A DNA stretch of 64,000 bases from Escherichia coli (GTDB lineage: Bacteria > Pseudomonadota > Gammaproteobacteria > Enterobacterales > Enterobacteriaceae). The notes below the pieces were generated by a model that was not told where the DNA came from, did not search any database, and was given only the letters and a program-made list of their open reading frames with translations. Of this stretch, positions 8,392 to 45,963 are shown one piece after another; position 1 is the stretch's first letter, and every line of letters starts with the position of its first letter. The stretch is taken from NCBI RefSeq assembly GCF_024298765.1, contig NZ_CP101210.1; one strand, 5' to 3'. The translations under genes and the position numbers were made by a program.

Positions 8392-8424
8392 AGCAAACCA
8401 GCTCATAAGCCGGGAGAACAACCT

Positions 8425-9264: not shown

Positions 9265-9266
9265 AG

Positions 9267-12918: not shown

Positions 12919-12933
12919 ATATAAGGAGAACCA

Positions 12934-13482: not shown

Positions 13483-13508
13483 ATTCAAAAAATACAGAGG
13501 AATAAGAC

Positions 13509-14630: not shown

Positions 14631-14632
14631 GC

Positions 14633-15598: not shown

Positions 15599-16080
15599 TG
15601 ATGTTTTTACGTCAGGAAGACTTTGCCACGGTAGTGCGCTCCACCCCGCTTGTCTCCCTCGACTTTATTGTTGAGAACAGTCGCGGCGAGTTTCTGCTTG
15701 GCAAAAGAACCAACCGCCCGGCGCAGGGTTACTGGTTTGTGCCGGGAGGGCGCGTGCAGAAAGACGAAACGCTGGAAGCCGCATTTGAGCGGCTGACGAT
15801 GGCGGAACTGGGGCTGCGTCTGCCGATAACAGCAGGCCAGTTTTACGGTGTCTGGCAGCACTTTTATGACGATAACTTCTCCGGCACGGATTTCACCACT
15901 CACTATGTGGTGCTCGGTTTTCGCTTCAGAGTAGCGGAAGAAGAACTGTTACTGCCGGATGAGCAGCATGACGATTACCGCTGGCTGACGCCGGACGCAC
16001 TGCTCGCCAGTGACAATGTTCACGCTAACAGCCGCGCCTATTTTCTCGCTGAGAAGCGTGCCGGAGTACCCGGATTATGA
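15598..16080 (+). CDS. gmm: GDP-mannose mannosyl hydrolase (Nudix)
   Basis: 160 aa; synteny after fcl. Confidence 0.9.
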
Positions 16081-18931: not shown

Positions 18932-20302
18932 ATGAAAAAATTAACCTGCTTTAAAGCCTATGATATTCGCGGGAAATTAGGCGAAGAACTGAATGAAGAT
19001 ATCGCCTGGCGCATTGGTCGCGCCTATGGCGAATTTCTCAAACCGAAAACCATTGTGTTAGGCGGTGATGTCCGTCTCACCAGCCAAACCTTAAAACTGG
19101 CGCTGGCAAAAGGTTTACAGGATGCGGGCGTTGACGTGCTGGATATTGGTATGTCCGGCACCGAAGAGATCTATTTCGCCACGTTCCATCTCGGCGTGGA
19201 TGGCGGCATTGAAGTTACCGCCAGCCATAATCCGATGGATTATAACGGCATGAAGCTGGTTCGCGAGGGGGCTCGCCCGATCAGCGGAGATACCGGACTG
19301 CGCGACGTCCAGCGTCTGGCTGAAGCCAACGACTTTCCTCCCGTCGATGAAACCAAACGCGGTCGCTATCAGCAAATCAACCTGCGTGACGCTTACGTTG
19401 ATCACCTGTTCGGTTATATCAATGTCAAAAACCTCACGCCGCTCAAGCTGGTGATTAACTCCGGGAATGGCGCAGCGGGTCCGGTGGTGGACGCCATTGA
19501 AGCCCGCTTTAAAGCCCTTGGCGCACCCGTGGAATTAATCAAAGTGCACAACACGCCGAACGGCAATTTCCCCAACGGTATTCCTAACCCGCTACTGCCG
19601 GAATGCCGCGACGACACCCGCAATGCGGTCATCAAACACGGCGCGGATATGGGCATTGCCTTTGATGGCGATTTTGACCGCTGCTTCCTGTTTGACGAAA
19701 AAGGGCAGTTTATCGAAGGCTACTACATTGTCGGCCTGCTGGCAGAAGCGTTCCTCGAAAAAAATCCCGGCGCGAAGATCATCCACGATCCACGTCTCTC
19801 CTGGAATACCGTTGATGTGGTGACTGCCGCTGGCGGCACGCCGGTGATGTCGAAAACCGGACACGCCTTTATTAAAGAACGTATGCGCAAGGAAGACGCC
19901 ATCTACGGTGGCGAAATGAGCGCCCACCATTACTTCCGTGATTTCGCTTACTGCGACAGCGGCATGATCCCGTGGCTGCTGGTCGCCGAACTGGTGTGCC
20001 TGAAAGATAAAACGCTGGGCGAACTGGTACGCGACCGGATGGCGGCGTTTCCGGCAAGCGGTGAGATCAACAGCAAACTGGCGCAACCCGTTGAGGCGAT
20101 TAACCGCGTGGAACAGCATTTTAGCCGTGAGGCGCTGGCGGTGGATCGCACCGATGGCATCAGCATGACCTTTGCCGACTGGCGCTTTAACCTGCGCACC
20201 TCCAATACCGAACCGGTGGTGCGCCTGAATGTGGAATCGCGCGGTGATGTGCCGCTGATGGAAGCGCGAACGCGAACTCTGCTGACGTTGCTGAACGAGT
20301 AA
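18932..20302 (+). CDS. cpsG: Phosphomannomutase (colanic acid copy)
   Basis: Start taken at [14 protein letters not shown] (456 aa), not the track start 18884; phosphohexomutase fold with TASHNP. Confidence 0.95.
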
Positions 20303-26094: not shown

Positions 26095-27489
26095 ATGCCA
26101 TTTAAAACACTCTCCCGACGCACCTTCCTGACGGCAAGCTCGGCGCTTGCCTTCCTCCATACCCCTTTCGCTCGCGCACTTCCCGCCCGACAAAGCGTTA
26201 ACATTAACGACTACAACCCACACGACTGGATCGCCTCATTTAAACAAGCCTTCAGCGAAGGGCGAACGGTCGTCGTGCCTGCCGGATTGGTTTGTGACAA
26301 TATCAACACCGGCATCTTCATTCCTCCCGGCAAAACGTTACACATCCTTGGAAGCCTGCGCGGCAATGGCAGAGGGCGATTTGTCTTACAGGACGGCAGC
26401 CAGGTGACAGGGGAGGAGGGCGGCAGTATGCATAACATCACCCTGGATGTGCGTGGCTCTGACTGCACCATCAAAGGGCTGACGATGAGCGGCTTTGGTC
26501 CGGTAACGCAGATTTATATCGGCGGCAAAAACAAACGAGTAATGCGTAACCTCTCCATCGATAACCTGACCGTTAGCCACGCTAATTACGCCATCTTACG
26601 CCAGGGATTTCATAACCAGATTATCGGTGCCAACATCACCAACTGTAAATTTAGTGATTTACAGGGCGACGCCATTGAATGGAACGTGGCGATTAACGAC
26701 CGTGATATTTTGATATCTGACCATGTCATCGAGCGCATCAACTGTACCAACGGCAAAATCAACTGGGGTATCGGCATAGGCCTTGCGGGAAGTACCTACG
26801 ATAATAACTACCCGGAAGACCAGGCAGTGAAAAACTTTGTCGTGGCGAATATCACGGGATCGGATTGTCGGCAGTTGATCCATGTTGAAAATGGTAAACA
26901 TTTTGTTATTCGTAATATCAAAGCCCGCAATATCACGCCGGATTTCAGTAAGAAAGCAGGTATTGATAACGCGACGGTCGCTATTTACGGTTGTGACAAT
27001 TTCGTGATTGATAATATTGAAATGATTAATAGCGCCGGAATGTTAATCGGCTATGGGGTAATTAAAGGCACATATCTCTCGATACCGCAAAATTTCCGAG
27101 TGAATAATATTCAACTGGATAATACCCACCTTGCTTACAAATTGCGCGGCATCCAAATCTCTGCCGGGAATGCCGTCTCCTTTGTGGCACTGACTAACAT
27201 TGAGATGAAGCGTGCGTCGCTGGAGTTACACAACAAACCGCAACATCTTTTTATGCGAAATATCAAGGTGATGCAGGAATCCTCAGTTGGACCCGCATTG
27301 AGCATGAACTTTGACATGCGCAAAGACGTTCGCGGCGTATTTATGGCGAAAAAAGAAACACTACTGTCTCTTGCAAATGTTCATGCGGTGAATGAAAAAG
27401 GGCAAAGCTCCGTCGATATCGACAGGATTAATCACCATATTGTTAATGTGGAAAAGATTAACTTTAGATTGCCGGAACGGAGGGAGTAG
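26095..27489 (+). CDS. wcaM: Colanic acid biosynthesis protein WcaM (signal peptide, predicted beta-helix)
   Basis: 464 aa; N-terminal Tat-like signal [13 protein letters not shown]; last gene of the wca cluster. Confidence 0.9.
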
Positions 27490-27646
27490 ATTTGCGACCA
27501 TTCATAAACTTACTGGATATAATGTTCTAAAAGATTATAATCCTCACACTAACTGTTAAAGCTGGGGCTGGGCAGCATTGACTACTCAGGGAAGGTACTC
27601 ATCTTTATCTTGTGTTTCTTACGTAACAACCAGACTAAAGTGATTT

Positions 27647-28642
27647 ATGAACGATAACGTTTTGCTCATAGGAGCTTCCGGATTCGTAGGAACCCGACTA
27701 CTTGAAACGGCAATTGCTGACTTTAATATCAAGAACCTGGACAAACAGCAGAGCCACTTTTATCCAGAAATCACACAGATTGGCGATGTTCGCGATCAAC
27801 AGGCACTCGACCAGGCATTAGTTGGTTTTGACACTGTTGTACTACTGGCAGCGGAACACCGCGATGACGTCAGCCCTACTTCTCTCTATTATGATGTCAA
27901 CGTTCAGGGTACCCGCAATGTGCTGGCGGCCATGGAAAAAAATGGCGTTAAAAATATCATCTTTACCAGTTCCGTTGCTGTTTATGGTTTGAACAAACAT
28001 AACCCTGACGAAAACCATCCACACGACCCTTTCAACCACTACGGCAAAAGTAAGTGGCAGGCAGAGGAAGTGCTGCGTGAATGGTATAACAAAGCACCAA
28101 CAGAACGTTCATTAACCATCATCCGTCCTACCGTTATCTTCGGTGAACGCAACCGCGGTAACGTCTATAACTTGCTGAAACAGATCGCTGGCGGCAAGTT
28201 TATGATGGTGGGCGCAGGGACTAACTATAAGTCCATGGCTTATGTTGGAAACATTGTTGAGTTTATCAAGTACAAACTGAAGAATGTTGCCGCAGGTTAT
28301 GAGGTTTATAACTACGTTGATAAGCCAGACCTGAACATGAACCAGTTGGTTGCTGAAGTTGAACAAAGTCTGAACAAAAAGATCCCTTCTATGCACTTGC
28401 CTTACCCACTAGGAATGCTGGGTGGATATTGCTTTGATATCCTGAGCAAAATTACGGGCAAAAAATACGCTGTCAGCTCTGTGCGCGTGAAAAAGTTCTG
28501 CGCAACTACACAGTTTGACGCAACGAAAGTGCATTCGTCAGGTTTTGTTGCACCGTATACGCTGTCGCAAGGTCTGGATCGAACTCTGCAGTATGAATTC
28601 GTCCATGCCAAAAAAGACGACATAACGTTTGTTTCTGAGTAA
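27647..28642 (+). CDS. gne: NAD-dependent UDP-N-acetylhexosamine 4-epimerase (Gne-like SDR)
   Basis: 331 aa; Rossmann GASGFVGTRL; sits between wcaM and galF where some E. coli lineages carry gne. Confidence 0.8.
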   Translation: MNDNVLLIGASGFVGTRLLETAIADFNIKNLDKQQSHFYPEITQIGDVRDQQALDQALVGFDTVVLLAAEHRDDVSPTSLYYDVNVQGTRNVLAAMEKNGVKNIIFTSSVAVYGLNKHNPDENHPHDPFNHYGKSKWQAEEVLREWYNKAPTERSLTIIRPTVIFGERNRGNVYNLLKQIAGGKFMMVGAGTNYKSMAYVGNIVEFIKYKLKNVAAGYEVYNYVDKPDLNMNQLVAEVEQSLNKKIPSMHLPYPLGMLGGYCFDILSKITGKKYAVSSVRVKKFCATTQFDATKVHSSGFVAPYTLSQGLDRTLQYEFVHAKKDDITFVSE

Positions 28643-28884
28643 TGCAGACGAGTCAGAGAAAAAAGGACTAGGTTGGACTACGATTATTCGGAAAGAGGTA
28701 CTGATTAAATTATCAGTATGTGGATTTCCGAGTAATCCGAGTAACCCAGATGCTGATGGTGTGTAGTGTTATCGTAAGGTTTAAGCAAAGTTATGCGGAA
28801 CTAAGCTTTGGTATATAGCCATAACGTTTGGCTAACCTATGGCAATAATTTACGCACTATCAGCCACTTAGAGGTAGGAAAAGA

Positions 28885-29778
28885 ATGACGAATTTAAAAG
28901 CAGTTATACCGGTAGCAGGTCTTGGGATGCATATGTTGCCTGCCACTAAGGCGATTCCCAAAGAGATGCTACCGATCGTCGACAAGCCAATGATTCAGTA
29001 CATTGTTGACGAGATTGTGGCTGCAGGGATCAAAGAAATCCTCCTGGTAACTCATGCGTCCAAGAACGCGGTCGAAAACCACTTCGACACCTCTTATGAA
29101 TTAGAATCTCTCCTTGAACAGCGCGTGAAGCGTCAGCTGCTGGCGGAAGTGCAGTCCATCTGTCCGCCTGGCGTGACCATTATGAACGTGCGTCAGGGTG
29201 AACCTTTAGGTTTGGGCCACTCCATTTTATGTGCACGACCCGCCATTGGTGACAACCCATTTGTCGTGGTGCTGCCAGACGTTGTGATCGATGACGCCAG
29301 CGCCGACCCGCTGCGCTACAACCTTGCTGCCATGATTGCGCGCTTCAACGAAACGGGCCGCAGCCAGGTGCTGGCAAAACGTATGCCGGGTGACCTCTCT
29401 GAATACTCCGTCATTCAGACCAAAGAACCGCTGGACCGTGAAGGCAAAGTCAGCCGCATTGTTGAATTTATCGAAAAACCGGATCAGCCGCAGACGCTGG
29501 ACTCAGACATCATGGCCGTAGGTCGTTATGTGCTTTCTGCTGATATTTGGCCGGAACTGGAACGTACTCAGCCTGGTGCATGGGGGCGTATTCAGCTTAC
29601 TGATGCTATTGCCGAACTGGCGAAAAAACAGTCCGTTGATGCCATGCTGATGACTGGAGACAGCTACGACTGCGGTAAAAAAATGGGCTATATGCAGGCG
29701 TTTGTGAAGTATGGGCTGCGCAACCTGAAAGAAGGGGCGAAGTTCCGCAAAGGTATTGAGAAGGTGTTAAGTGAATAA
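28885..29778 (+). CDS. galF: UTP-glucose-1-phosphate uridylyltransferase paralogue (GalU-like regulatory subunit)
   Basis: 297 aa; nucleotidyltransferase motif [25 protein letters not shown]. Confidence 0.95.
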
Positions 29779-30011
29779 AAATTGATCATCCATATATGGT
29801 GGATTGAATAAAAATAGAACTGCAGTGAACATTCAAAAGAAAAGATGATTACGTTATAAGAATGTTCCTGTCTTTTATTGAAAGTATTTAATAACAATAA
29901 GTTACAGCATGTATCGCTCGTACATAGATTTTCCTTGTATTTGACTTCGTTTGATTAGACTATTGGAAAATAGTGAAAAGTATTAAATAATTAGTACCTA
30001 TGATTCATTTT

Positions 30012-30050
30012 CAGTGAGTTGGTAACTGTTAAGCCAAGGGCGGTAGCGTG
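30012..30050 (+). promoter_or_regulatory. JUMPstart element with ops (GGCGGTAGCGTG, 30039-30050) in O-antigen operon leader
   Basis: cagtgagttggtaactgttaagccaagggcggtagcgtg; same 39-bp architecture as the wza leader copy. Confidence 0.85.
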
Positions 30051-30085
30051 TGTTTTGATCCTACCCACGTAATATGGACACAGGC

Positions 30086-30841
30086 CTAAGCGAGGTTCTG
30101 GTTTTCAAATTGTTCCGGACTGAGGCCGCCACACCAACTGTGCCGCCGCCACCGATTGTAATCACATTCGATATAATTAAACACCGTTGCCCGCATTATT
30201 TCCCGGCTGATAAAGTGTTCTCCATGGATACATTCCACTTTCAGCGAATGAAAGAAGCTTTCCACGCAGGCATTATCGTAGCAGCAACCTTTTGCGCTCA
30301 TACTTCCACGCAGATTATGCCGCTTCAGTTGCGCCGTCATGCGTGGCGACATTGACCAGCCAATAACGGCACGTGACCACAGGTCAATGACCACTGCCAG
30401 ATACAGCCAGCCTTCATCTGTACGTAAGTACGTGATGTCTCCTGCCCACTTCTGGTTCGGGCCACTGGCGTAAAAATCCTGCTCCAACAGATTTTCTGAC
30501 ACAGGCAGGCCGTGTGCGCGGTAGCTGACCGGGCTGAACTTCCGGGAGGCCTTTGCCCTCAGTCCCTGACGGCGCAGGCTTGCCGCCACGGTTTTTACGT
30601 TAAAGGGGTAACCCTGAGCACGCAGTTCATCCGTCAGGCGTGGGGCACCGTAACGCTGTTTTGACCGGGTAAAAGCCGCGAGGACAACGCTGTCGCAGTG
30701 TTGGCGGAACTGCTGACGCGTGCTTATCCTTGTCCGCCGCTGACACCACGTATACCAGCCGCTGCGGGCCACCCGGAGCACGCGGCACATTGCTTTGATG
30801 CTGAACTCAGCCTGATGTTTTTCAATAAAGACATACTTCAT
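30086..30841 (-). pseudogene. insF: IS3 OrfB transposase catalytic domain, apparently truncated by in-frame internal deletion (251 aa versus recalled 288 aa)
   Basis: [19 protein letters not shown]...; junction PRMTAQL|KRHNLRG at about 30326/30327; recalled intact OrfB has about 37 extra residues here including HTDRGGQY. Confidence 0.7.
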
Positions 30842-31146
30842 TTCAGGCGCTTCGCGAAGTATGTCGCGGCCTTTTGGAGGATAGCCAGCTCTTCATCCCG
30901 TTCTGCCAGCTGGCGTTTGAGACGTGCAATCTCGGTAGACATCTCCAGTTCACGTTCAGAAGACGTCTGCTGATTTTGCTGTTTACTGCGCCAGTTGTAG
31001 AGCTGTGATTCATACAGGCTGAGTTCACGGGCTGCGGCAGTAACACCGATGCGTTCAGCAAGCTTCAGGGCTTCACTGCGAAATTCAGGCGAATGCTGTT
31101 TACGGGGTTTTTTACTGGTTGATACTGTTTTTGTCATGTGAGTCAC
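30838..31146 (-). CDS. insE: IS3 OrfA (transposase N-terminal HTH protein)
   Basis: 102-aa ORF ...[50 protein letters not shown]...; leucine-zipper-like C-terminus. Confidence 0.9.
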
Positions 31147-31237
31147 CTCTGACTGAGAGTTTACTCACTTAGCCGCGTGTCCACTATTGCTGGGTAAGAT
31201 CATTTTTCTCTCAATCCTCATGATAAAGGAGGTTTAT

Positions 31238-32257
31238 ATGGTGATTTTCGTAACAGGCGGTGCAGGATATATTGGATCCCATACCATACTTGAGTTACTT
31301 AATAATGGTCATGATGCCGTTTCGATAGATAATTTTGCCAATTCCTCTATAGAATCATTAAAAAGAGTAGAGCAAATAACTAATAAGAAAATTATTTCTT
31401 ATCAAGGTGATATCCGTGATAAAAATCTACTTGATGAGATTTTTTCAAGACATCATATCGATGCTGTAATTCATTTTGCATCGTTAAAATCTGTAGGTGA
31501 GTCAAAGTTAAAGCCCTTAGAGTATTATTCTAATAATGTTGGTGGAACTTTAGTATTACTTGAATGCATGAAGAGATATAACATTAATAAAATGATATTT
31601 AGCTCTTCTGCTACTGTTTATGGGAATAACAGTATCCCTCCCCATACGGAAGATAGACGAATTGGTGAAACTACAAACCCATATGGGACATCGAAGTTTA
31701 TAATAGAAATGATTTTGAGTGATTATTGTGATAGCGATAATAATAAATCAGTAATTGCACTACGTTATTTTAATCCAATCGGAGCACATAAGTCCGGGAT
31801 GATTGGTGAAAATCCTAACGGGATTCCTAATAATCTGGTTCCTTATATATCTAAAGTTGCACAAAATCAACTTCCTGTATTAAATATTTATGGCAACGAT
31901 TATCCAACTAAAGATGGTACAGGAGTAAGAGACTATATACATGTCTGTGATTTGGCTAAAGGGCATGTTAAAGCATTAGAATATATGTTTTTAAATGATG
32001 TCAATTATGAGGCTTTTAATTTAGGTACTGGTCAAGGTTATTCTGTTTTAGAGATTGTAAAAATGTTTGAGATAGTCACTAAAAAGAGTATACCTTTTGC
32101 TATTTGTAATAGACGTGAGGGGGATGTTGCTGAGTCATGGGCGTCTGCTGATTTGGCACATGAAAAGCTTTCCTGGAAAGCGGAAAAAAAATTGAAAGAA
32201 ATGATCGAAGATGTATGGCGTTGGCAAACAAAAAATCCAAATGGATATAAAAAATAA
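31238..32257 (+). CDS. UDP-hexose 4-epimerase (GalE/Gne family), first O-antigen gene
   Basis: Start at ATG 31238 with AGGAGG RBS (track ORF begins 31187, overlapping the IS end); 339 aa; TGGAGYIGSHT Rossmann, NPYGTSK, YxxxK; AT-rich. Confidence 0.85.
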   Translation: MVIFVTGGAGYIGSHTILELLNNGHDAVSIDNFANSSIESLKRVEQITNKKIISYQGDIRDKNLLDEIFSRHHIDAVIHFASLKSVGESKLKPLEYYSNNVGGTLVLLECMKRYNINKMIFSSSATVYGNNSIPPHTEDRRIGETTNPYGTSKFIIEMILSDYCDSDNNKSVIALRYFNPIGAHKSGMIGENPNGIPNNLVPYISKVAQNQLPVLNIYGNDYPTKDGTGVRDYIHVCDLAKGHVKALEYMFLNDVNYEAFNLGTGQGYSVLEIVKMFEIVTKKSIPFAICNRREGDVAESWASADLAHEKLSWKAEKKLKEMIEDVWRWQTKNPNGYKK

Positions 32258-33318: not shown

Positions 33319-34440
33319 ATGGCTAAAGTCGCTCTCATTACTGGCATAACCGGACAAGACGGTTCTTACCTGGCAGAGTTTCTGCTGGAAAAAGGTTACG
33401 AGGTGCATGGTATTAAGCGTCGTGCATCGTCATTCAACACCGAGCGCGTGGATCACATTTATCAGGATCCGCACACCTGCAACCCGAAATTCCATCTGCA
33501 TTATGGCGACCTGAGTGATACCTCCAACCTGACGCGCATTTTGTGTGAAGTGCAGCCGGATGAAGTGTACAACCTTGGCGCAATGAGTCACGTTGCGGTC
33601 TCTTTTGAGTCACCGGAATATACCGCAGACGTTGATGCGATGGGTACGCTGCGCCTGCTCGAGGCGATCCGCTTCCTCGGTCTGGAAAAGAAAACCCGTT
33701 TCTATCAGGCTTCCACTTCTGAACTGTACGGTCTGGTGCAGGAGATTCCGCAGAAAGAGACCACGCCGTTCTACCCACGCTCTCCGTATGCAGTCGCCAA
33801 ACTGTACGCCTACTGGATCACCGTTAACTACCGCGAATCCTACGGCATGTACGCCTGTAACGGTATTCTCTTTAACCATGAATCCCCGCGCCGCGGCGAA
33901 ACCTTCGTTACCCGCAAAATCACCCGCGCAATCGCCAACATCGCACAGGGGCTGGAGTCGTGCCTGTACCTCGGCAATATGGATTCCCTGCGTGACTGGG
34001 GCCACGCCAAAGACTACGTAAAAATGCAGTGGATGATGCTGCAACAGGAACAGCCGGAAGATTTCGTCATCGCTACCGGCGTTCAGTATTCCGTGCGTCA
34101 GTTCGTGGAAATGGCGGCAGAGCGAGTCGGAATCAAACTGCGTTTTGAAGGCGCAGGTGTAGATGAGAAAGGGATAGTGGTTTCTGTTAATGGTGAGGAT
34201 GCTCCAGCAGTTAAACCTGGAGATGTAATCGTTAAGGTTGACCCGCGTTACTTCCGTCCGGCTGAAGTTGAAACACTGCTCGGCGACCCGACCAAAGCGC
34301 ACGAAAAACTGGGCTGGAAACCGGAAATCACCCTCAGAGAGATGGTGTCTGAAATGGTGGCTAATGACCTCGAAGCGGCGAAAAAACACTCTCTGCTGAA
34401 ATCTCACGGCTACGACGTGGCGATCGCGCTGGAGTCATAA
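33319..34440 (+). CDS. gmd: GDP-mannose 4,6-dehydratase (O-antigen copy)
   Basis: 373 aa; near-identical to colanic acid gmd apart from a divergent patch at about 34110-34255. Confidence 0.95.
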
Positions 34441-34442
34441 GC

Positions 34443-35408
34443 ATGAGTAAACAACGCATTTTTATCGCTGGCCATCGTGGGATGGTCGGTTCTGCCATCA
34501 GGCGGCAGCTCAAACAGCGCGGTGATGTGGAACTGGTATTACGCACCCGCGACGAGCTGAACCTGCTGGACAGCCGCGCGGTGCATGATTTCTTTGCCAG
34601 CGAACGCATTGACCAGGTCTATCTGGCGGCGGCGAAAGTGGGCGGCATTGTTGCCAACAACACCTATCCGGCGGATTTCATCTACCAGAACATGATGATT
34701 GAGAGCAACATCATTCACGCCGCGCATCAGAACGACGTGAACAAACTGCTGTTTCTCGGATCGTCCTGTATCTACCCGAAACTGGCAAAACAGCCGATGG
34801 CAGAAAGCGAGTTATTGCAGGGCACGCTGGAGCCGACCAACGAGCCTTACGCCATTGCCAAAATCGCCGGGATCAAACTGTGCGAATCTTACAACCGCCA
34901 GTATGGACGCGATTACCGCTCAGTCATGCCGACCAACCTGTACGGGCCGCACGACAACTTCCACCCGAGTAACTCGCACGTGATCCCTGCATTGCTGCGT
35001 CGCTTCCACGAGGCGACGGCACAGAATGCGCCGGACGTGGTGGTGTGGGGCAGCGGTACACCGATGCGCGAATTTCTGCACGTTGATGATATGGCAGCGG
35101 CGAGCATTCATGTGATGGAGCTGGCGCACGAAGTCTGGCAGGAGAACACCCGGCCGATGCTGTCGCACATTAACGTCGGCACGGGCGTTGACTGCACTAT
35201 CCGTGAGCTGGCGCAAACCATCGCCAAAGTGGTGGGTTACAAAGGTCGGGTGGTTTTTGATGCCAGCAAACCGGATGGTACGCCGCGCAAACTGCTGGAT
35301 GTGACGCGCCTGCATCAGCTTGGCTGGTATCACGAAATCTCACTGGAAGCGGGGCTTGCCAGCACTTACCTGTGGTTCCTTGAGAATCAAGACCGCTTTC
35401 GGGGGTAA
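34443..35408 (+). CDS. fcl: GDP-L-fucose synthase (O-antigen copy)
   Basis: 321 aa; nucleotide-identical to colanic acid fcl across the whole gene by line-by-line comparison. Confidence 0.95.
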
Positions 35409-35911
35409 TGATGTTTTTACGTCAGGAAGACTTTGCCACGGTAGTGCGCTCCACCCCGCTTGTCTCCCTCGACTTTATTGTTGAGAACAGTCGCGGCGAG
35501 TTTCTGCTTGGCAAAAGAACCAACCGCCCGGCGCAGGGTTACTGGTTTGTGCCGGGAGGGCGCGTGCAGAAAGACGAAACGCTGGAAGCCGCATTTGAGC
35601 GGCTGACGCTTGCGGAACTGGGGTTGCGTCTGCCGATAACAGCAGGCCAGTTTTACGGTGTCTGGCAGCACTTTTATGACGATAACTTCTCCGGCTCGGA
35701 TTTCACCACTCACTATGTGGTGCTCGGTTTTCGCATCAGAGTAGCGGAAGAAAAGCTGTTACTGCCGGATGAGCAGCATGACGATTACCGCTGGCTGACG
35801 CCGGACGCGTTGCTCGCCAGTGACAATGTTCACGCTAACAGCCGAGCTTATTTTAATCATGATCCAAGAGCTGTTATTGGTTTAGATAAAAAGGATGTCA
35901 AAAATGTCTGA
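35408..35911 (+). CDS. gmm: GDP-mannose mannosyl hydrolase (O-antigen copy, divergent C-terminus)
   Basis: 167 aa; first ~145 aa near-identical to colanic gmm, then diverges after ...NSRAYF; 3' end overlaps manC. Confidence 0.85.
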
Positions 35912-37352
35912 TGTACCGTTGATTGCTGTTGTAATGGCTGGTGGTACGGGTAGCCGTCTTTGGCCCCTCTCAAGAGAGCACTATCCGAAGCAATTTCTGC
36001 AATTATCAGGTGAGAATACTTTATTACAGTCAACCTTATTACGACTATCCCCGCTTTCTTGCGAAACTCCATTAGTAATAACAAATGAGCAACATCGCTT
36101 TGTGGTTGCAGAACAATTACGTCAAATTGATCAGTTAAGAGATAATATTATTCTTGAGCCATGTGGAAGAAATACGGCTCCCGCCATAGCTCTTTCAGCA
36201 TTTACAGCTTTGAAGCGTAATGAACAACAGGATCCTATTTTGTTGATTCTCGCAGCTGACCATATTATAAGCAAAGCGGATGTTTTTTGTGACGCTATTC
36301 AAAAATCGAAAACTGTAGCTGAACAGGGGAATATTGTAACCTTTGGGATTATACCTGAATATGCGGAAACAGGTTATGGTTATATAAAAAAAGGAGATCC
36401 TTTTAAAATTTTACCAAATATTACTGATGATAAGTTTTATCATGTCCAACAATTTATTGAAAAACCTAACCATTCGACGGCAGAAGAGTATGTTTCCACA
36501 GGAGAATATCTCTGGAATAGTGGAATGTTTATGTTTAAAGCATCAGTATATTTAGAGGAATTGAAAAAGCACAGGCCTGATATATACGAAATCTGTGAGC
36601 AGACAGCTTCATTATCCTATAACGATCTTGATTTCATACGATTGCCTAAACATATTTTCCAAGATTGTCCGTCGGAATCAATTGATTTTGCGGTTATGGA
36701 AAAAACAAAAAATTGCATTGTTCGTCCAGTAGACATCGGGTGGAGTGATGTAGGCTCTTGGCATTCTTTGTGGGATATTAGTGATAAAACGCAGGATGGA
36801 GATGTCTGTAAAGGTGATATTCTAACTTATAACACTAAAAACAATTATATATATTGTGAATCAGCCCTAGTGGCTGCTGTAGGTGTAGAAGATATAGTTA
36901 TTGTTCAAACAAAAGATGCTATTCTCGTGTCCAAAAAAACTGAGGTTCAGGATGTAAAAAAAATAGTAGAAATGCTTAAGGAACATGAGCGCTCAGAGTA
37001 TATATCGCATCGAGAGGAGTTTCGGCCTTGGGGAAAATTTGATGCGATAGATCAGGGAGAACGATATAAAGTTAAAAAGATAGTTGTGAAACCCGGCGAA
37101 GGACTATCCTTACGAATGCACCATCATCGTTCTGAGCATTGGATTGTTCTTTCCGGCACAGCAAAAGTAACTTTAAACGATAAAACAGTATTGCTTGCTG
37201 CAAATGAATCAATCTACATTCCTCTAGGAGCAACGTATAGTCTTGAAAATCCAGGAATAATCCCTCTGAATCTTATTGAGGTTAGTTCAGGCGATTATTT
37301 AGGTGAGGATGATATTGTACGGCAAAAAGAACGCTACAGAATAGATGACTAA
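35895..37352 (+). CDS. manC: Mannose-1-phosphate guanylyltransferase (O-antigen copy, divergent and AT-rich)
   Basis: 485 aa; [12 protein letters not shown] nucleotidyltransferase motif; clearly diverged from cpsB in protein and composition. Confidence 0.9.
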
Positions 37353-37355
37353 TAT

Positions 37356-38735
37356 ATGAAAAAATTAACCTGCTTTAAAGCCTATGATATTCGCGGGAAA
37401 TTAGGTGAAGAACTGAATGAAGATATCGCCTGGCGCATTGGTCGCGCCTATGGCGAATTTCTCAAACCGAAAACCATTGTGTTAGGCGGTGATGTCCGCC
37501 TCACCAGCGAAACCTTAAAACTGGCGCTGGCAAAAGGTTTGCAGGATGCGGGCGTCGATGTGCTGGATATTGGTATGTCCGGCACCGAAGAGATCTATTT
37601 CGCCACGTTCCATCTCGGCGTGGATGGCGGCATTGAAGTTACCGCCAGTCATAATCCGATGGATTACAACGGCATGAAACTGGTGCGCGAAGGGGCTCGC
37701 CCGATCAGCGGCGATACCGGACTGCGCGATGTCCAGCGTCTGGCAGAAGCCAACGACTTTCCTCCCGTTGATGAAACCAAACGCGGTCGCTATCAGCAAA
37801 TCAACCTGCGTGACGCTTACGTTGATCACCTGTTCGGTTATATCAGTGTCAAAAACCTTACGCCGCTCAAGCTGGTGATTAACTCCGGGAACGGCGCGGC
37901 GGGTCCGGTGGTGGACGCCATTGAAGCCCGCTTTAAAGCCCTCGGCGCACCGGTGGAATTAATCAAAGTACACAACACGCCGGACGGCAATTTCCCCAAC
38001 GGTATTCCTAACCCGTTGCTGCCGGAATGCCGCGACGACACCCGTCATGCGGTCATCAAACACGGCGCGGATATGGGCATTGCCTTTGATGGCGATTTTG
38101 ACCGCTGTTTCCTGTTTGACGAAAAAGGGCAGTTTATCGAGGGCTACTACATTGTCGGCTTGCTGGCACAAGCGTTCCTCGAAAAAAATCCCGGCGCGAA
38201 GATCATCCACGATCCACGTCTCTCCTGGAACACCGTTGATGTGGTGACTGCCGCAGGCGGCACCCCGGTAATGTCGAAAACCGGACACGCCTTTATTAAA
38301 GAACGGATGCGCAAGGAAGACGCCATCTACGGTGGCGAAATGAGCGCCCACCATTACTTCCGTGATTTTGCTTACTGCGACAGCGGCATGATCCCGTGGC
38401 TGCTGGTCGCCGAACTGGTGTGTCTGAAAGGAAAAACGCTGGGCGAACTGGTGCGCGACCGGATGGCAGCATTTCCGGCAAGCGGTGAGATCAACAGCAA
38501 ACTGGCGGACCCCGTTGAGGCGATTAACCGCGTGGAACAGCATTTTAGCCGTGAGGCGCTGGCGGTGGATCGCACCGATGGCATCAGTATGACCTTTGCC
38601 GACTGGCGCTTTAACCTGCGCTCCTCCAACACCGAACCGGTGGTGCGCCTGAATGTGGAATCGCGCGGTAATATAGCATTAATGAATGAACAGGTTGAAT
38701 TTATTACAAAATTTTTAAACGGTGATGGTTTATGA
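37356..38735 (+). CDS. manB: Phosphomannomutase (O-antigen copy)
   Basis: 459 aa; near-identical to cpsG in the stretches compared except the last ~20 codons. Confidence 0.95.
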
Positions 38736-39289
38736 GAATATTAAAAATTATTATAAGTGTATTGTTGTTTATAAAAAAGAAAAGAAAAAAAATACCGGAC
38801 TCAGCAATAATAAACTTAACAAGTCATGTGGATAAACATTCAGTAATTGGAAAGTGTTGTTATATAGGGAAAAATGTATATATAACTAAAAGTATCATTG
38901 GGAATTACACATCTATTGCAAATAATGTCTCAATTGGTCAAGGTGAACATAAGGTTGATGCAGTTAGTACAAGTTCGATGTTCTACGATAATGAATTCGA
39001 AGATTTAACACAAAACGATTGTATTATAGGTAATGATGTGTGGCTCGGTACAGGAGTTACTGTATTACGAGGGGTAAGAATTGGTGATGGTGCTATTATT
39101 GGTGCTAATGCCGTTGTCACAAAAAATATTCCAGATTATTGTATTGCGGTAGGAGTACCTGCGAAAGTAATCAAAAGAAGATTACCAGTAAATGTTACTG
39201 AAAAAATAAAAGAGACTAAATGGTGGAATGATGAATATGAAGTGGCGAAGGATAAAATTATTTGCTTAACAAATGAATTAAAGTTATGA
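38732..39289 (+). CDS. O-acetyltransferase, hexapeptide-repeat (LbH) family
   Basis: 185 aa; repeats such as [31 protein letters not shown]; 4-bp overlap with manB; AT-rich. Confidence 0.75.
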
Positions 39290-40728
39290 ACAAAAAAGAA
39301 ATAATTATCTTGCTTATAGCCAGAATTCTACAGATTCTCATTAGTTTATTCACAATGAGATTGATGACAACGATTTTAAGCAATGAGCAAATGGGGGAGT
39401 ATTATATTTTTTTAGCAATCTATATGTTGGCATCATTGGGTATAATTAATCCAATAGGACAATATGTGAATCGCAACACTTATTTATGGTGGAGAGAGGG
39501 AGTACTAACCCAATATATTGATCGATATATTAATTTTGTTTTGTGTTTTTCGCTTATTTATGTGATTTTGTATGGACTTGGTGAATGTTTGTTTAAAGGA
39601 ATAAATACACCATTTTGGATGTTATTCTGTTATTTATATATAGTATGTTTATCTCTAAACCAATTTCTATTACATACTTTAAATATCTTAAATTTTAAGA
39701 TAGTATTTTCCATTATGACGTTGATGACTTCTGTATTAAGTTTATCAGGGGCATATTTATTTATTGAATATAGCATAGCTAAACAAACTGTTAGTATATA
39801 TTACTGGGTTGCAGGAATCATAATTGGCAATTTTATTTCTTTATGTATATGCGTTGTATATCTGAGATGTAGAAATACGTTCCAAAAATCAATTCCTAAA
39901 TCTATCAATGTAAGCATAAAAGAAGTTTTTAATTTTTGCTGTCCAATTATGATAACAACTTTGTTCATTTGGTTTCAAAGCTCTGGATATCGATTTGCTG
40001 TCGAGCAAATGTTTGGCTTAAAGTTTTTAGGTATACTAGCTGTATGTTTTGCTGTGTCAGGGCAAATAATGTCAGTGATTGAGTCTTTAGTGACACAGAT
40101 ATTTCAACCAACATTATTTAAGCATATGGATAATGTCAAAAATAGAAAGCAACATCTAGATTTTTATATTAATGAAAATATAGCAATTTATGCTAGTGTA
40201 TTATTTTTTTGTACTTTCTTTATGCGCGAAATATTTTTGGTTTTAGTTGACAATAAATATCTTCCTTACTTCTATATAGGTATAATAGCTTTATGGAGTG
40301 AATTTTTTAGGATATCAACCAATACTTTGTCTTTAGTGTTTTTTTGCGAAAAGAAAATGAAGGTGGGAATTTTTCCTTATTTAATTGGCTCATTAAGTCT
40401 GGCTTTTTCGATCGTCTTGTTCAGGTTGTTAAATGTAAATTTGGGTATTTTAATAGCTTTTGCTATTGGGATTGCACAATTGGCCTCCTTTATCGTTTGC
40501 TTAATTACGGTAAAAAAAATCTCTTATTTTAAAATAAATTCCATCTTCTTAATGAAGAGGATAATAATAGTACTACCTTCTGTGTTAATTGCCCATTGCA
40601 TTCCTAAATTTGAAATGATTAATGCTGTCCATTTTATTATCATTTTCGGTGTCGGTTTATTTTACTTAATCTCTTTAGTTACTTCTTTTATGTTTATTAA
40701 ACAACCAGGAGGTGTTTATGGAAGTTAA
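39286..40728 (+). CDS. wzx: O-antigen flippase (Wzx-like polytopic membrane protein)
   Basis: 480 aa, very hydrophobic with about 12 predicted TM segments; position in O-antigen cluster. Confidence 0.7.
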   Translation: MNKKEIIILLIARILQILISLFTMRLMTTILSNEQMGEYYIFLAIYMLASLGIINPIGQYVNRNTYLWWREGVLTQYIDRYINFVLCFSLIYVILYGLGECLFKGINTPFWMLFCYLYIVCLSLNQFLLHTLNILNFKIVFSIMTLMTSVLSLSGAYLFIEYSIAKQTVSIYYWVAGIIIGNFISLCICVVYLRCRNTFQKSIPKSINVSIKEVFNFCCPIMITTLFIWFQSSGYRFAVEQMFGLKFLGILAVCFAVSGQIMSVIESLVTQIFQPTLFKHMDNVKNRKQHLDFYINENIAIYASVLFFCTFFMREIFLVLVDNKYLPYFYIGIIALWSEFFRISTNTLSLVFFCEKKMKVGIFPYLIGSLSLAFSIVLFRLLNVNLGILIAFAIGIAQLASFIVCLITVKKISYFKINSIFLMKRIIIVLPSVLIAHCIPKFEMINAVHFIIIFGVGLFYLISLVTSFMFIKQPGGVYGS

Positions 40729-41569
40729 AATTATTGGGGGACTTGGCAATCAGATGTTTCAGTATGCAACTGCATTTGCTATTGCAAAAAGAACTCATCA
40801 AAATTTGACTGTTGATATATCTGATGCAGTAAAATATAAAACTCATCCATTAAGATTAGTTGAATTATCTTGTAGTTCAGAATTTGTAAAAAAAGCATGG
40901 CCATTTGAAAAATACTTATTTTCCGAAAAAATCCCACATTTCATGAAAAAAGAAATGTTCAGAAAGCATTACGTTGAGAAAAGTTTAGAGTATGATCCAG
41001 ATATTGATACTAAAAGTATAAATAAAAAAATCGTCGGTTATTTTCAAACTGAAAAATATTTTAAGGAATTTAGGCATGAGTTGATAAAGGAATTTCAACC
41101 TAAAACTAAGTTTAATAGTTATCAAAATGAATTGCTTAATTTAATTAAAGAAAATGATACTTGTTCATTGCATATTAGAAGAGGTGATTATGTTTCCAGT
41201 AAAATAGCAAATGAAACTCATGGTACATGTAGTGAAAAATATTTTGAACGTGCCATTGATTATTTGATGAATAAAGGTGTTATTAATAACAAAACCCTTC
41301 TCTTCATTTTTTCTGATGATATAAAGTGGTGCAGGGAAAATATATTTTTTAATAATCAAATATGTTTTGTTCAAGGTGATGCTTATCATGTTGAATTAGA
41401 TATGTTGCTTATGAGTAAATGTAAAAATAATATAATTTCAAATAGTTCTTTCAGTTGGTGGGCTGCTTGGTTAAATGAAAATAAAAATAAAACAGTAATT
41501 GCTCCGAGTAAATGGTTTAAGAAAGATATTAAACATGATATTATTCCCGAATCGTGGGTAAAATTATGA
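40718..41569 (+). CDS. Alpha-1,2-fucosyltransferase (GT11 family)
   Basis: Start at ATG 40718 with AGGAGG RBS; GT11 signature HIRRGDYV; N-terminal GGLGNQMFQYA; co-located with GDP-fucose genes. Confidence 0.8.
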   Translation: MEVKIIGGLGNQMFQYATAFAIAKRTHQNLTVDISDAVKYKTHPLRLVELSCSSEFVKKAWPFEKYLFSEKIPHFMKKEMFRKHYVEKSLEYDPDIDTKSINKKIVGYFQTEKYFKEFRHELIKEFQPKTKFNSYQNELLNLIKENDTCSLHIRRGDYVSSKIANETHGTCSEKYFERAIDYLMNKGVINNKTLLFIFSDDIKWCRENIFFNNQICFVQGDAYHVELDMLLMSKCKNNIISNSSFSWWAAWLNENKNKTVIAPSKWFKKDIKHDIIPESWVKL

Positions 41570-42432
41570 TGGAAGATACAAAAGAATTAATAACAGTAAT
41601 AATGCCTGTTTATAATGCGGAAAAATACATATATGAATCTATAAAAAGTATTTTGGTGCAGTCATATTCTAATTTTGAGTTCATCATTATTAATGATGGC
41701 TCAAAAGATTCTTCTGGAAAAATTATTGAAAACTTTCTCGATGATACGAGGATACGATATATAAATCGTGAAAATAAAGGTTTGGTCTTCACTCTGAATG
41801 AAGCTATTTCGTTATCAAGAGGAAATTATATTGCTCGAATGGATGCTGATGATATTTCACATCCCCTACGATTAGAAAAGCAACTAAATTTTCTACTAGA
41901 AAATCCAGATATAGCCGTAGTTGGGTGTTCTTCTTTTATTATTGACCAAAATTCTAAGGTTATAAATACGCGAAAACCACCTTTGACACCTTTAGTAAAT
42001 AAAGCATTGCTATTTTTTGGCCCAACATTAACTCATCCATCAGTGATGTTTAATAAAATACTACTTGGAGATCAGCTTTACTACAGTGATAAATATCTTC
42101 ATGTTGAAGATTATGACTTGTGGTTGAGGTTAATTAATCAATACAAAATAGCTAATATCAAAGATGTTCTTTTTTACTATCGAATTAATGAGTCAGGTGT
42201 TTCACAGACTAATTTATTTGAACAAAAAATTAATGCTGCTAAAGCATATAGTGAAATTAAATATGATGGTAAGTATAAAGACTTACTGGAAAAGTTAGAA
42301 GTCATACACCTGAGACATGAAATGGAGAAAAGTAAGGTCTTTCAGGCCGTATTATATATATTATTAAAGTATGAACATGATTCATTATTATTTTTAAAAT
42401 TAGGATATATATTACGATGGTTAATAAAATAA
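41554..42432 (+). CDS. Glycosyltransferase, GT2 family
   Basis: 292 aa; VIMPVYNAEKYI...IIINDGSKDSS and ARMDADD (DXD-type) motifs. Confidence 0.8.
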   Translation: MGKIMMEDTKELITVIMPVYNAEKYIYESIKSILVQSYSNFEFIIINDGSKDSSGKIIENFLDDTRIRYINRENKGLVFTLNEAISLSRGNYIARMDADDISHPLRLEKQLNFLLENPDIAVVGCSSFIIDQNSKVINTRKPPLTPLVNKALLFFGPTLTHPSVMFNKILLGDQLYYSDKYLHVEDYDLWLRLINQYKIANIKDVLFYYRINESGVSQTNLFEQKINAAKAYSEIKYDGKYKDLLEKLEVIHLRHEMEKSKVFQAVLYILLKYEHDSLLFLKLGYILRWLIK

Positions 42433-43316
42433 AAATAGCACTAATAAGTACAGAAAAAGCTAATCTTCCTGAAATTGAAGCCTATAAGGAGTATTTTTCG
42501 GAGCCATTTGATGTCTCTGTTGTTAATAAAAATGATGATTTAAGTTGTTATGATGTTTTATGGTACTTTATGGGGTTTAAAGGTAATAAAATAAACTCTA
42601 AACAGTTCTTGATTCATGAGTTTTCCTCAATTTCAGTACCACCATTTCCAAAAATAAAAAACGTTATCAAGAAATTTATTTTGCCTAAACCTAATTTGAG
42701 GGTTTTTTTAAATAAATCAGTGCAACAACAATTCGATTTTAATGATAGAGTTCCTTTTTGTTACCGAGATATGGGCGTCAATTATAAACCAGTAGTTGAA
42801 AGAAATAATAAAAAATATGATATATTATATGTGGGGGCAATTACTGGTAGAAAACTAGATGATGCATTAAATTTGATTTTGTCATATAAATTAGATTGTA
42901 AAATCGCAATTCTTGGTAAAGTGCCAGAAAAGTTCAAAGAAAAATATAAAAATACTGATGTTATATTTCTTGGGCAAGTTCCTTATAATCGGGTAGCCAC
43001 CATTATTGCAGAATCTAACTTGTGTTTAAATTGGATTCCGAATATTTATCCATATAACATGCAGACATCAACAAAATTCTTAGAGTATCTGGCACAAAAT
43101 AAACAAATAATATCGAATAGCTACCCTTGGGTTGACTCTTATTGTCAACAGCATAATATTGACTATATTAATGTCAATGATTCCAATTCTATTCGACAAG
43201 CATTGAACTCAGTCATAATCCAAAAATCAACACATATCCCCCCAAGTTGGCGAGAGGTTATTATGAATAGCGGGATAGAGAATCACATTAAATCATATTT
43301 TGAGGTAACAAAATGA
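42417..43316 (+). CDS. Putative glycosyltransferase (family not recognisable from motifs)
   Basis: 299 aa, AT-rich, 16-bp overlap with upstream GT2 gene; C-terminal region loosely resembles a GT-B C-terminal domain. Confidence 0.5.
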   Translation: MVNKIKIALISTEKANLPEIEAYKEYFSEPFDVSVVNKNDDLSCYDVLWYFMGFKGNKINSKQFLIHEFSSISVPPFPKIKNVIKKFILPKPNLRVFLNKSVQQQFDFNDRVPFCYRDMGVNYKPVVERNNKKYDILYVGAITGRKLDDALNLILSYKLDCKIAILGKVPEKFKEKYKNTDVIFLGQVPYNRVATIIAESNLCLNWIPNIYPYNMQTSTKFLEYLAQNKQIISNSYPWVDSYCQQHNIDYINVNDSNSIRQALNSVIIQKSTHIPPSWREVIMNSGIENHIKSYFEVTK

Positions 43317-44356
43317 TTTCTTACGGAGTGCTATTTCTCTTCTCTTATATCAATGCTGTACTTCAGAAGAGAGTAACCGTAACGTTACTATTTTTTATAA
43401 TGATAATTGTTTCTTTCTTTAAATATAATATTGGATTTGATTGGGGGAATTATCATGAAATTTACCTTCAGCAAGGAGATGGCTTTTTTTTTAATGAACC
43501 CCTATTTTCTCTCTTAATTATTCTTTCCAATAAGGTTGCATTAGAATATAAATATTTTATATCAATGTGCTCATTAATTACACTGATTGTTTATTATTCT
43601 GGTATGCGGTGTTTTGCAAGAGATATAAAAGAGTTAGCTTTAGCATTAACTTATTTTGTTGTCTCTTATTGCTACTTTGAACACTTTAATATTATTCGAC
43701 AAGCTTTAGCAATCGCTTTATTCTTTTATAGTTGGAAATATATTATTGAGACTAACTTTATAATGTATAGCCTCTTTATTTTTTTTGCATCTATGATTCA
43801 TGCGGCGGCGGTTGTATTGCTCCCATTTTACTTTTTCCTTAGAATTGATAATTTTAAACCTGTATATTATGGTATAGTGGTCTTATTTATTATTATTGTT
43901 GTTAGATTCGATATTAACAGCATCCTTTTAAGTTCACTTAATTTATTTAAAAATTTCGATTTTGTAGCCAGGTATTTAGCAAATTCAACAGATTTGGCTG
44001 ACTTTGCATCAAAAAAATCTGATCTTGGATTAAGTAAGATATACCCAGCAATTATATTTGTTTTCTGTTGTTTTTGGGGAGGGATTAGGTTAGAGTCTCG
44101 AAGAGACTATGTTTTTTTTAATGCTGGCTTTATTGCAATAACTTTACTGCTCTTAAGCTATCAGGTTGATATTTTGTTTAGATTTTTCTCTTTTTTTGAG
44201 ACTTCATTTGTCTTGTTGTACTGCATTATTTTTTCTGGTTTTAATAAAAAAAGTAAAATTATACTGCATATGGTTAATTTAATTGTATATACGGTAATGA
44301 CATTTAACATGTTATCAGTAATGGGCTTGATTCCTTATGAATCATACATTTTCTAA
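43313..44356 (+). CDS. wzy: O-antigen polymerase (Wzy-like polytopic membrane protein)
   Basis: 347 aa, highly hydrophobic and Phe/Ile/Leu-rich, very AT-rich; 4-bp overlap with upstream gene. Confidence 0.6.
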   Translation: MISYGVLFLFSYINAVLQKRVTVTLLFFIMIIVSFFKYNIGFDWGNYHEIYLQQGDGFFFNEPLFSLLIILSNKVALEYKYFISMCSLITLIVYYSGMRCFARDIKELALALTYFVVSYCYFEHFNIIRQALAIALFFYSWKYIIETNFIMYSLFIFFASMIHAAAVVLLPFYFFLRIDNFKPVYYGIVVLFIIIVVRFDINSILLSSLNLFKNFDFVARYLANSTDLADFASKKSDLGLSKIYPAIIFVFCCFWGGIRLESRRDYVFFNAGFIAITLLLLSYQVDILFRFFSFFETSFVLLYCIIFSGFNKKSKIILHMVNLIVYTVMTFNMLSVMGLIPYESYIF

Positions 44357-44837
44357 TAAGCTTCCCTCAGTTGTTTGTTGTATAGTAATATTTTAATATC
44401 ATTGCAGTGTGTAATTATTGTCAATAAGCTAATTTCTGTTATTTGCATGATTAATTCAGTTTGCAATGCTTGATGTAAAAAGATAAAGTGCACCCGTTTA
44501 CACAATGTTTATTTTGGCATGTCAAGTATAAGTTCTAAATAATACGTTTGTAATGTTTAGCATGTAAACATAATAGTTAAATAATATTAAACATGCAACA
44601 TGCCATTTGTTATTCTAATAAAACATATGTGTTGTGTGAATTATTTAATGTGGAAAGTGGTTGCGTATTATAAATTGTTCATATTGACGTTTAAGTCTTT
44701 TATAACTCCATGCTTGCATGTTAAAAACATTTCGCTATATATTCGCTATATATTATGGTAGGTGGTTTTTATCTAGGCAGATTTGTCTATTTAACTCTAA
44801 ATCTAAATCGCTTAAGAAAGTATGAGTAGGAGTATTT

Positions 44838-45857
44838 ATGGCTATTCTCGTTACAGGTGGTGCTGGTTATATTGCATCACATACTATACTGAGTTTGATA
44901 GAGCAGGGTAATGAAGTAATTATTATTGATAATTTATCAAATTCATATTATGATTCGTTATTGAAAATAAAAGAGATTACTGGATGTGATTGTCTTTTTT
45001 ATAAAGGAGATATCCTTGACAAAAAACTCTTGCTAAAAATATTTGATGAAAATAATATCACTGCTGTGATGCATTTTGCTGGTGCAAAGTCTGTAAGTGA
45101 ATCTGTTATCAGACCTTTGCAATACTATCGAAATAATGTCTCTGGCACTTTTTCTTTAGTTGAGGCAATGGAGGAGTCTGGTGTAGAAAATTTAATATTT
45201 AGCTCTTCAGCAACTGTCTATGGTGAGCCAAAGATTATTCCTGTGAATGAAAGTTGTGCTATAGGTGGTACTACAAATCCGTATGGAACGTCCAAGTTAT
45301 TTGTAGAGAACTTTTTGCGGGATTATTCTAAGGCATCCCCTAATTTTAAAACTATAGTATTAAGATATTTTAACCCTATCGGTGCTCACTCATCTGGAAA
45401 AATAGGTGAAGATCCTAACGGAATTCCGAATAACTTGATGCCCTTTATATGCCAGGTTGCTATCGGTAAACAAAAAACGCTCAAGATCTACGGAAATGAT
45501 TATCCTACTAAAGATGGTACTGGGATTCGCGATTATATTCATGTTATGGATCTTGCTGAAGGTCATGTTGCTGCATTAAATAATATTAATCAAGGAGCTA
45601 ATTATAGAGTTTACAACCTTGGAACAGGAATTGGATACTCTGTGTTGGAATTATTAGAAGCATTTCAGAAAGTTACAACTCGGAGAGTTCCCTATGTTTT
45701 TACTAAAAGGCGTTCAGGTGATATCGCTGAATGTTGGTCTGATCCTACCAAAGCGTATGAAGAATTAGGATGGAAAGCAAGGCGAGGGTTAGAAGATATG
45801 ATTCGTGATGCATGGAATTGGCAGCAAAAAAATCCAAATGGATTTAAGAAAGTTTAA
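44838..45857 (+). CDS. UDP-hexose 4-epimerase (GalE/Gne family), last O-antigen gene
   Basis: 339 aa; TGGAGYIASHT, NPYGTSK, IYGNDYPTKDGTGIRDYIHV; paralogous to the 31238 gene. Confidence 0.85.
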   Translation: MAILVTGGAGYIASHTILSLIEQGNEVIIIDNLSNSYYDSLLKIKEITGCDCLFYKGDILDKKLLLKIFDENNITAVMHFAGAKSVSESVIRPLQYYRNNVSGTFSLVEAMEESGVENLIFSSSATVYGEPKIIPVNESCAIGGTTNPYGTSKLFVENFLRDYSKASPNFKTIVLRYFNPIGAHSSGKIGEDPNGIPNNLMPFICQVAIGKQKTLKIYGNDYPTKDGTGIRDYIHVMDLAEGHVAALNNINQGANYRVYNLGTGIGYSVLELLEAFQKVTTRRVPYVFTKRRSGDIAECWSDPTKAYEELGWKARRGLEDMIRDAWNWQQKNPNGFKKV

Positions 45858-45963
45858 TAAAAATGAAACGATATATTAAGTGTTAGCTTGTTTAATTAAT
45901 TTAAAGTTAATATTATTTACATTAATATGTAATGAAAGTGATATTCTATGACAGGAGTAAACA

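Follow-up and report, generated by a model that had tools for sequence, protein, structure and literature searches.

The manB gene of an Escherichia coli O-antigen cluster raises a question: why does it closely resemble cpsG from the colanic acid cluster of the same genome, when the adjacent manC does not resemble its colanic acid counterpart, and did the resident cpsG donate the sequence? We analyzed a window of 64,000 nucleotides (unless otherwise stated, coordinates refer to this whole stretch) in which the colanic acid (wca/cps) cluster is followed by galF, the O-antigen cluster, gnd, and ugd. The serogroup-specific part of the O-antigen cluster (38736-45900) matches 22 complete genomes at 99.2% identity or more, and in these genomes wzx and wzy are annotated as belonging to the O128 family; two of these strains are typed, as O128:H27 and O128ac:H12. 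We also compared the region from eight more O128 genomes and from O86, O157, O111, O7, and O11 genomes. The manB alleles of O128 form two groups, which we call A (the window included) and B. A literature search on O128ab and O128ac returned nothing about the genetics of these clusters, so we did not equate group A with O128ab. The features that bear on the origin of manB are as follows.

33319-34440, plus strand: O-antigen gmd, in the GDP-fucose module
34443-35408, plus strand: O-antigen fcl, in the GDP-fucose module
35408-35911, plus strand: O-antigen gmm, in the GDP-fucose module
35895-37352, plus strand: O-antigen manC (GDP-mannose pyrophosphorylase / PMI), low-GC and not colanic-like
37356-38735, plus strand: O-antigen manB, in the GDP-fucose module
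37356-38669, plus strand: cpsG-derived tract of manB (codons 1-438), with 96.35% ungapped identity to 18932-20245 and a GC content of ~0.55
38670-38735, plus strand: 3' tail of manB, AT-rich and native (the final 21 codons and the stop), GC 0.25, in frame
18932-20302, plus strand: resident colanic acid cpsG, paralogous to the manB tract but not a recent donor of it
17303-18739, plus strand: resident colanic acid cpsB, used as the reference for manC

First, manB consists of cpsG sequence superimposed on a native manB, with sharp borders. An earlier note on this DNA had described a match to cpsG over about 1.3 kb with sporadic substitutions, and divergence in only the last ~20 codons. Both parts of this description are accurate: when nucleotides 1-1314 of manB were compared to cpsG, by BLASTN and without gaps, we found 48 mismatches and no gaps, and the break at 38670 sets off the last 22 codons, including the stop. 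From that position onwards, identity drops to the random level (~26%), and it does so again immediately 5' of the start codon (ATG) at 37356. The mismatches are evenly distributed and affect 45 codons, with 37 synonymous and 8 amino acid changes. The two protein differences that the note had picked out are real and lie at residue 51 (SQTLK in CpsG versus SETLK in ManB) and residue 207 (NTPNGNF versus NTPDGNF). The match is high, as claimed, but "near-identical" overstates it: 3.65% divergence is usual between the cpsG genes of unrelated strains.

The product of the chimeric gene matches NF011943 (the CpsG subfamily in NCBIfam) with 1,035 bits, as compared to a cutoff of 801, across residues 1-455 of 459. 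The intact reading frame, the ratio of synonymous to amino acid changes (37 to 8 codons), and the conservation of the gene in 22 genomes suggest that ManB is an active phosphomannomutase.

The 66-nt tail is a relic of the original low-GC manB. Its GC content is like that of the downstream genes, and it encodes a ManB-type C terminus that can be aligned to the tails of CpsG and of the O111 and O157 proteins. Its identity to cpsG is ~40%, and the tail of O128 subtype B is the same (100% identity). When we compared the C-terminal 49 amino acids to 5.8 billion proteins, the matches were short fragments only (43-86 amino acids), and the single exact match was a partial protein from E. coli.

We also considered whether a whole cpsG might have been inserted or duplicated into an O-antigen cluster that had no manB of its own. 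This would fit with the 5' junction, which lies at the ATG or a few bases from it in O128, O86, and O11. However, the 3' junction falls within the reading frame, and the 21 AT-rich codons beyond it are homologous to the C terminus of ManB; in O86, manB retains ~245 nt of native 3' sequence. Also, manC and manB are separated by 3 nt, which is the spacing of a native operon pair, and not by the 192-nt spacer between cpsB and cpsG, which is absent from the O-antigen cluster. Insertion of a whole gene is therefore very improbable. A collapsed or cross-assembled repeat is more doubtful still: the presence of repeats is all that speaks for it, the two copies differ at 48 sites, and the chimera appears in 22 independently assembled complete O128 genomes. 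Convergence of codon usage can be set aside with similar assurance, as identity at synonymous sites cannot arise in that way.

Second, the adjacent manC is not colanic-like. Its GC content is 0.375 (0.272 at third codon positions), as compared to 0.562 for cpsB, and the two genes are just 58-61% identical in nucleotides and 59% identical in amino acids, which agrees with the note's description of manC as AT-rich and diverged from cpsB. The identity of manB to cpsG (96%) is thus far above that of manC to cpsB (about 60%), and the two are not comparable. ManC matches the equivalog TIGR01479 with 754 bits, and its score is below the cutoff for the CpsB-type family PRK15460. The view of the GDP-fucose module as a mosaic, with a low-GC native manC between colanic-like gmd-fcl-gmm and a colanic-like manB, is also borne out: the GC content alternates between ~0.55 in gmd-fcl-gmm and most of manB and 0.36-0.38 in manC and in everything downstream of manB.

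manC is chimeric as well: two low-GC lineages are joined at ~36060. Its nucleotides 1-165 are 99-100% identical to manC from O86, and the remainder (36061-37352) is 99.6-100% identical to manC from O128ac but 77-87% identical to that from O86. Upstream, the 5' module (galE, a glycosyltransferase gene, and gmd-fcl-gmm) is O86-like (96.5-98.2%). Given this module and the joint in manC, the cluster of O128 group A has the appearance of a recombinant between O86 and O128. An alternative location for the joint, inside the colanic-like segment, was rejected because the O86-like part extends ~165 nt into manC.

Third, we asked whether the resident cpsG was the donor. The earlier note implied that manB was a conversion tract from the resident cpsG, and it expected manB alleles across serogroups to group by resident cpsG and not by serogroup. 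If the resident gene had recently overwritten manB, and if such conversion kept manB similar to the resident cpsG in each host, then high identity and sharp borders would be expected, as we observed. Also, a truly recent conversion did take place next to manB, in gmd-fcl-gmm (see below), and Iguchi et al. 2011 proposed conversion within the genome for the manB of Sakai-type O157 (PMC3158064). The sequence comparisons nevertheless contradict this scenario. Across O128 genomes, manB is no more similar to its own cpsG (mean 96.18%, n = 8) than to the cpsG of other strains (mean 96.12%, n = 64). These values are similar to the mean identity of 96.33% (range 95.4-99.7%) among cpsG alleles from unrelated strains of E. 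coli. Within the window, the longest identical run between manB and cpsG is 92 nt, while 48 randomly placed mismatches give a mean of 118 nt (P = 0.84). The group A alleles of manB are 99.7-99.9% identical across hosts whose cpsG genes differ by 2.3-4.4%, and the best matches to O128 manB outside of O128 (97.3-97.6%) are closer to it than the resident cpsG is. Recent conversion by the resident gene is therefore most unlikely: the manB tract is derived from cpsG, but not from the resident cpsG, and it was not recently converted in the window strain.

Phylogenetic trees give the same picture, although the cpsG panel is small (11 alleles) and neighbor-joining trees of recombining sequences are descriptive only. 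Bootstrap support for grouping manB with its own cpsG was 0-5.3% in all 11 genomes tested and 0% for the pair in the window. Instead, the alleles follow the subtype of the O-antigen cluster: group A and group B each form a clade with 100% support. Grouping by serogroup in the strict sense fails, as the two O128 subtypes are placed apart (0.8% support for a clade of all O128 manB), and a clade of all manB has 0% support.

We then looked for the donor more broadly. The manB tract lies within the cloud of E. coli cpsG alleles, with 95-99% identity to 4,632 genomes. But when we searched 5,426 complete genomes with the full-length manB and with nucleotides 1-1068, for both of the O128 alleles, no cpsG was more than 97.6% identical. 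Because no donor was found, the replacement events in manB can be dated only relatively.

Fourth, O128 is not the only serogroup with this chimera. The same arrangement occurs in O86, O157, O7, and O11, while manB from O111 is native (GC 0.352 and 62% identical to cpsG). The cpsG-like tract ends at nucleotide 1144 in O86, 1314 in O128, ~1332 in O157, and 1333 in both O7 and O11, whose manB genes have a common tail. The 5' junctions also differ slightly: the O157 protein has MKS, and the O7 gene is two codons shorter. Across serogroups, the manB tracts are ~96% alike, but the corresponding manC genes are only 73-83% alike. More broadly, we found ~1,037 extra cpsG-like places in the 4,676 genomes with matches. 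As an aside, in the O111:H8 strain 08-4347 nested IS3, IS30, and IS2 elements interrupt gmd and truncate the colanic acid cluster (12263-15455 of locus L010), and fcl through wcaM are missing, so there is no cpsG in that strain by which its native manB could be converted.

These comparisons bear on whether manB was replaced just once, long ago, and then diverged with no further exchange with cpsG. A single event would fit with manB alleles being deep lineages with no sampled donor, and with the stability of the allele within each subtype. However, groups A and B differ at 47 of 1,314 sites in the cpsG-like tract (3.6%), as compared to 2 of 1,295 sites in the core of manC (36061-37355) and 2 of 620 sites in the tail of manB and the acetyltransferase gene. 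That is, the native flanks have 4 differences in 1,915 nt (0.15-0.3%), which is far fewer than in the tract (Fisher P = 9e-15). All 47 of the differences lie within nucleotides 51-1068, with none between A and B in nucleotides 1069-1314; for 32 of these 47 sites (two thirds), both states segregate in a panel of 9 cpsG alleles. Because the differences are confined in this way and are mostly polymorphisms of cpsG, they point to a replacement nested within existing cpsG-like sequence. The similarity of manB across serogroups with more divergent manC, and the variation in the 3' junction, also argue against a single event, which we consider unlikely.

Instead, exchange with the cpsG pool of the species, and not with the present resident copy, has recurred. 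manB is polyphyletic within cpsG, and the existence of two O128 subtypes whose manB alleles do not group together and are ~3.5-3.6% apart points to repeated older exchange with that pool. In strain BUCT2930, B-type gmm and manC are combined with an A-type manB, with the switch between 36856 and 37481, so the manB tract behaves as a recombination unit of its own.

Overall, we think it highly probable that an old replacement by cpsG was followed by travel with the O-antigen cluster and by occasional re-patching. The O128 cluster would have been low-GC when it entered E. coli and would have contained a manC-manB pair of its own, as is still found in O111. Colanic acid cpsG sequence would then have overwritten codons 1-438 of manB, by recombination between directly oriented paralogues that are ~18 kb apart, and the last 21 native codons would have remained. 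The chimeric gene, which is predicted to encode a full-length phosphomannomutase of the CpsG type, would have moved between strains along with the O-antigen cluster, so that its allele would track the subtype of the cluster and not the host's cpsG. Later exchanges with whichever cpsG alleles were then resident would have re-patched the tract, and at least one of them would have replaced nucleotides ~51-1068 after the O128 subtypes split. We infer this order of events. The route may have been intragenomic conversion; import of a manB/cpsG segment from another strain would fit equally well. None of these steps would require a selective reason.

The first step of this history is hard to explain by ordinary RecA recombination, as a native manB is just 62.4% identical to cpsG, with a longest exact run of 11 nt. 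The corresponding values for manC and cpsB are similar (58-61% identity and runs of 11-14 nt), which rules out homology as the reason why manB was replaced and manC was not. Since native manB is no better a substrate than manC, neither the first capture of cpsG nor the asymmetry between manB and manC is explained by homology alone. Perhaps something favors manB over manC for replacement, and the first capture needs something other than ordinary homologous recombination, but we put this forward tentatively. Why manB was replaced and manC was not is a long-standing question, and the O128 case does not raise a new one beyond it.

Fifth, the window does contain a recent conversion, but it is in gmd-fcl-gmm; the replacement in manB is old. 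The features involved are these.

33319-35854, plus strand: colanic-like O-antigen gmd-fcl-gmm, 97.1% identical to 13509-16044
13509-16044, plus strand: colanic acid gmd-fcl-gmm, the direct-repeat partner
34276-35608, plus strand: perfect run of 1,333 nt shared with colanic 14466-15798, which marks the recent conversion

In both clusters, the perfect run takes in the whole of fcl, together with the adjoining 3' end of gmd and 5' part of gmm, and it is much longer than expected by chance (P < 5e-5 in the run-length test). When compared to the O-antigen copies in other group A genomes, the tract shows 99.8% identity, but with the colanic acid copies in other strains the value is only 97.6-98.3%. 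As it carries the O-antigen allele, the colanic acid copy was most likely the recipient, and the direction of conversion was most likely from the O-antigen cluster to the colanic acid cluster. Just upstream of the run, a 150-nt patch of the O-antigen gmd (34119-34268) is only 68-82% identical to the colanic acid gmd and has a GC content of 0.49 instead of 0.58. The patch is shared with strain 90-9281 (100% identity) and with O86 (96%), and it probably survives from an earlier gmd that was not colanic-like, in a part that the conversions missed.

The direct repeats in gmd-fcl can also lead to deletions: 2 of 22 O128 genomes lack the ~20-kb interval between them. The two deletion loci are the following.

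E41, 26253-30286 of locus L001: deletion locus
OkiPb01675, ~12207-14797 of locus L015, minus strand: deletion locus

In both strains, the gmd that comes after wcaF is colanic or hybrid, and fcl-gmm-manC-manB of the O-antigen cluster directly adjoin this gmd. The deletions remove wcaI through wcaM, galF, and the first O-antigen genes. They arose independently, one in each O128 subtype.

Chimeras like the O128 manB are already known from O157, E. coli B, and O14, and what we add here is incremental: the lack of affinity to the resident cpsG, the nested replacement, the diversity of the junctions, and the chimeric manC. In O157, as in O128, a low-GC manC adjoins a cpsG-like manB, and this has been explained by replacement from the colanic acid cluster or by gene conversion. 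Replacement of the O157 manB by the colanic acid gene was described in Samuel et al. 2004 (J Bacteriol 186:6536), according to Iguchi et al. 2011 (PMC3158064). Iguchi et al. 2011 found that cpsG and manB are >95% identical and attributed the variation in manB to gene conversion (PMC3158064). In O157, manB is the most variable gene of an otherwise conserved O-antigen cluster (PMC3158064), whereas we saw no variation in manB from strain to strain within O128 group A. There are other differences as well. In the O157:H7 genome that we analyzed, manC has a GC content of 0.376 and manB is cpsG-like for nucleotides 1-1332, but its tail and its 3' junction are not those of O128, and codon 3 differs. 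Also, gmd and fcl are native in O157 (~70% identity to the colanic acid genes), while they are colanic-like in O128.

A similar situation is said to exist in another species, Salmonella enterica. Jensen and Reeves reportedly described, in 2001, O-antigen clusters with a colanic-like manB beside a species-specific, low-GC manC, and they reportedly proposed that manB evolves in concert with cpsG through gene conversion with the colanic acid cluster. Both the asymmetry between manB and manC and the mechanism reportedly proposed there are the same as in E. coli.

The deletions in O128 also have precedents. In the long-term evolution experiment (LTEE) with E. coli B, manB and cpsG, which are 96% identical, recombine, and the region was deleted in 10 of 12 populations (PMC4173774). 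A deletion in the O14 type strain was attributed to recombination between manB and cpsG (Jensen & Reeves 2004, as described in a 2019 review of O antigens, PMC7685785). In these cases, as in O128, recombination of the RecA type between directly oriented repeats removes an interval of ~20 kb. The crossovers were between manB and cpsG in E. coli B and O14, but in the gmd-fcl repeat in the two O128 strains.

Our results have some practical implications. O-antigen manB genes are routinely annotated by automated tools as "colanic acid cpsG"; they are useless as serogroup markers and misleading in phylogenies. The direct repeats in cpsG/manB and in gmd-fcl are hot spots for conversion and for ~20-kb deletions, and those deletions abolish the synthesis of both colanic acid and O antigen. 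Also, distinguishing the old, traveling replacement of manB from the recent conversion of gmd-fcl-gmm makes it clear that a colanic-like segment in an O-antigen cluster is not necessarily fresh.

More speculatively, O-antigen clusters might act as a two-way conduit, in which alleles of manB, gmd, and fcl ride along with the cluster, sample the colanic acid alleles of each host, and are written back into colanic acid operons. The colanic acid fcl of the window does carry the O-antigen allele. We view the conduit as a possibility and would not assume it. If it does exist, then transfer of O-antigen clusters would contribute in a major way both to the unusually high polymorphism (~4%) of cpsG and fcl in E. 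coli and to the recurrent 20-kb deletions of colanic acid genes and part of the O-antigen cluster.

Finally, we noticed some other features of these loci. The group A cluster contains two epimerase genes of the galE/gne type, one at each end (31187-32257 and 44838-45857). Subtype B has only the downstream one, and its first glycosyltransferase is different (family 4, 1,122 nt). In the window, an IS3-family element (~30057-31202, with minus-strand open reading frames at 30086-30841 and 30838-31146) lies between galF and the first O-antigen gene. It is inserted ~10 nt 3' of the JUMPStart/ops motif GGCGGTAGCGT (30039-30049), and so it separates the operon's antitermination signal from its genes. 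Strain LHM10-1 has an IS3-family insertion at the same site, and the O128:H27 strain 90-9281 does not. In BUCT2930, wcaM and the gne-like gene are separated by an inserted IS3-family element, and the acetyltransferase gene 3' of manB (9343-9693 of locus L005, minus strand) is 351 nt long and is annotated as hypothetical; this gene is 558 nt elsewhere. And in strain EH08-18-36, the spacer between cpsB and cpsG contains a 240-nt pseudogene fragment of cpsG (10314-10553 of locus L007), 5' of the intact cpsG, which is a partial duplication of the 5' end of that gene.
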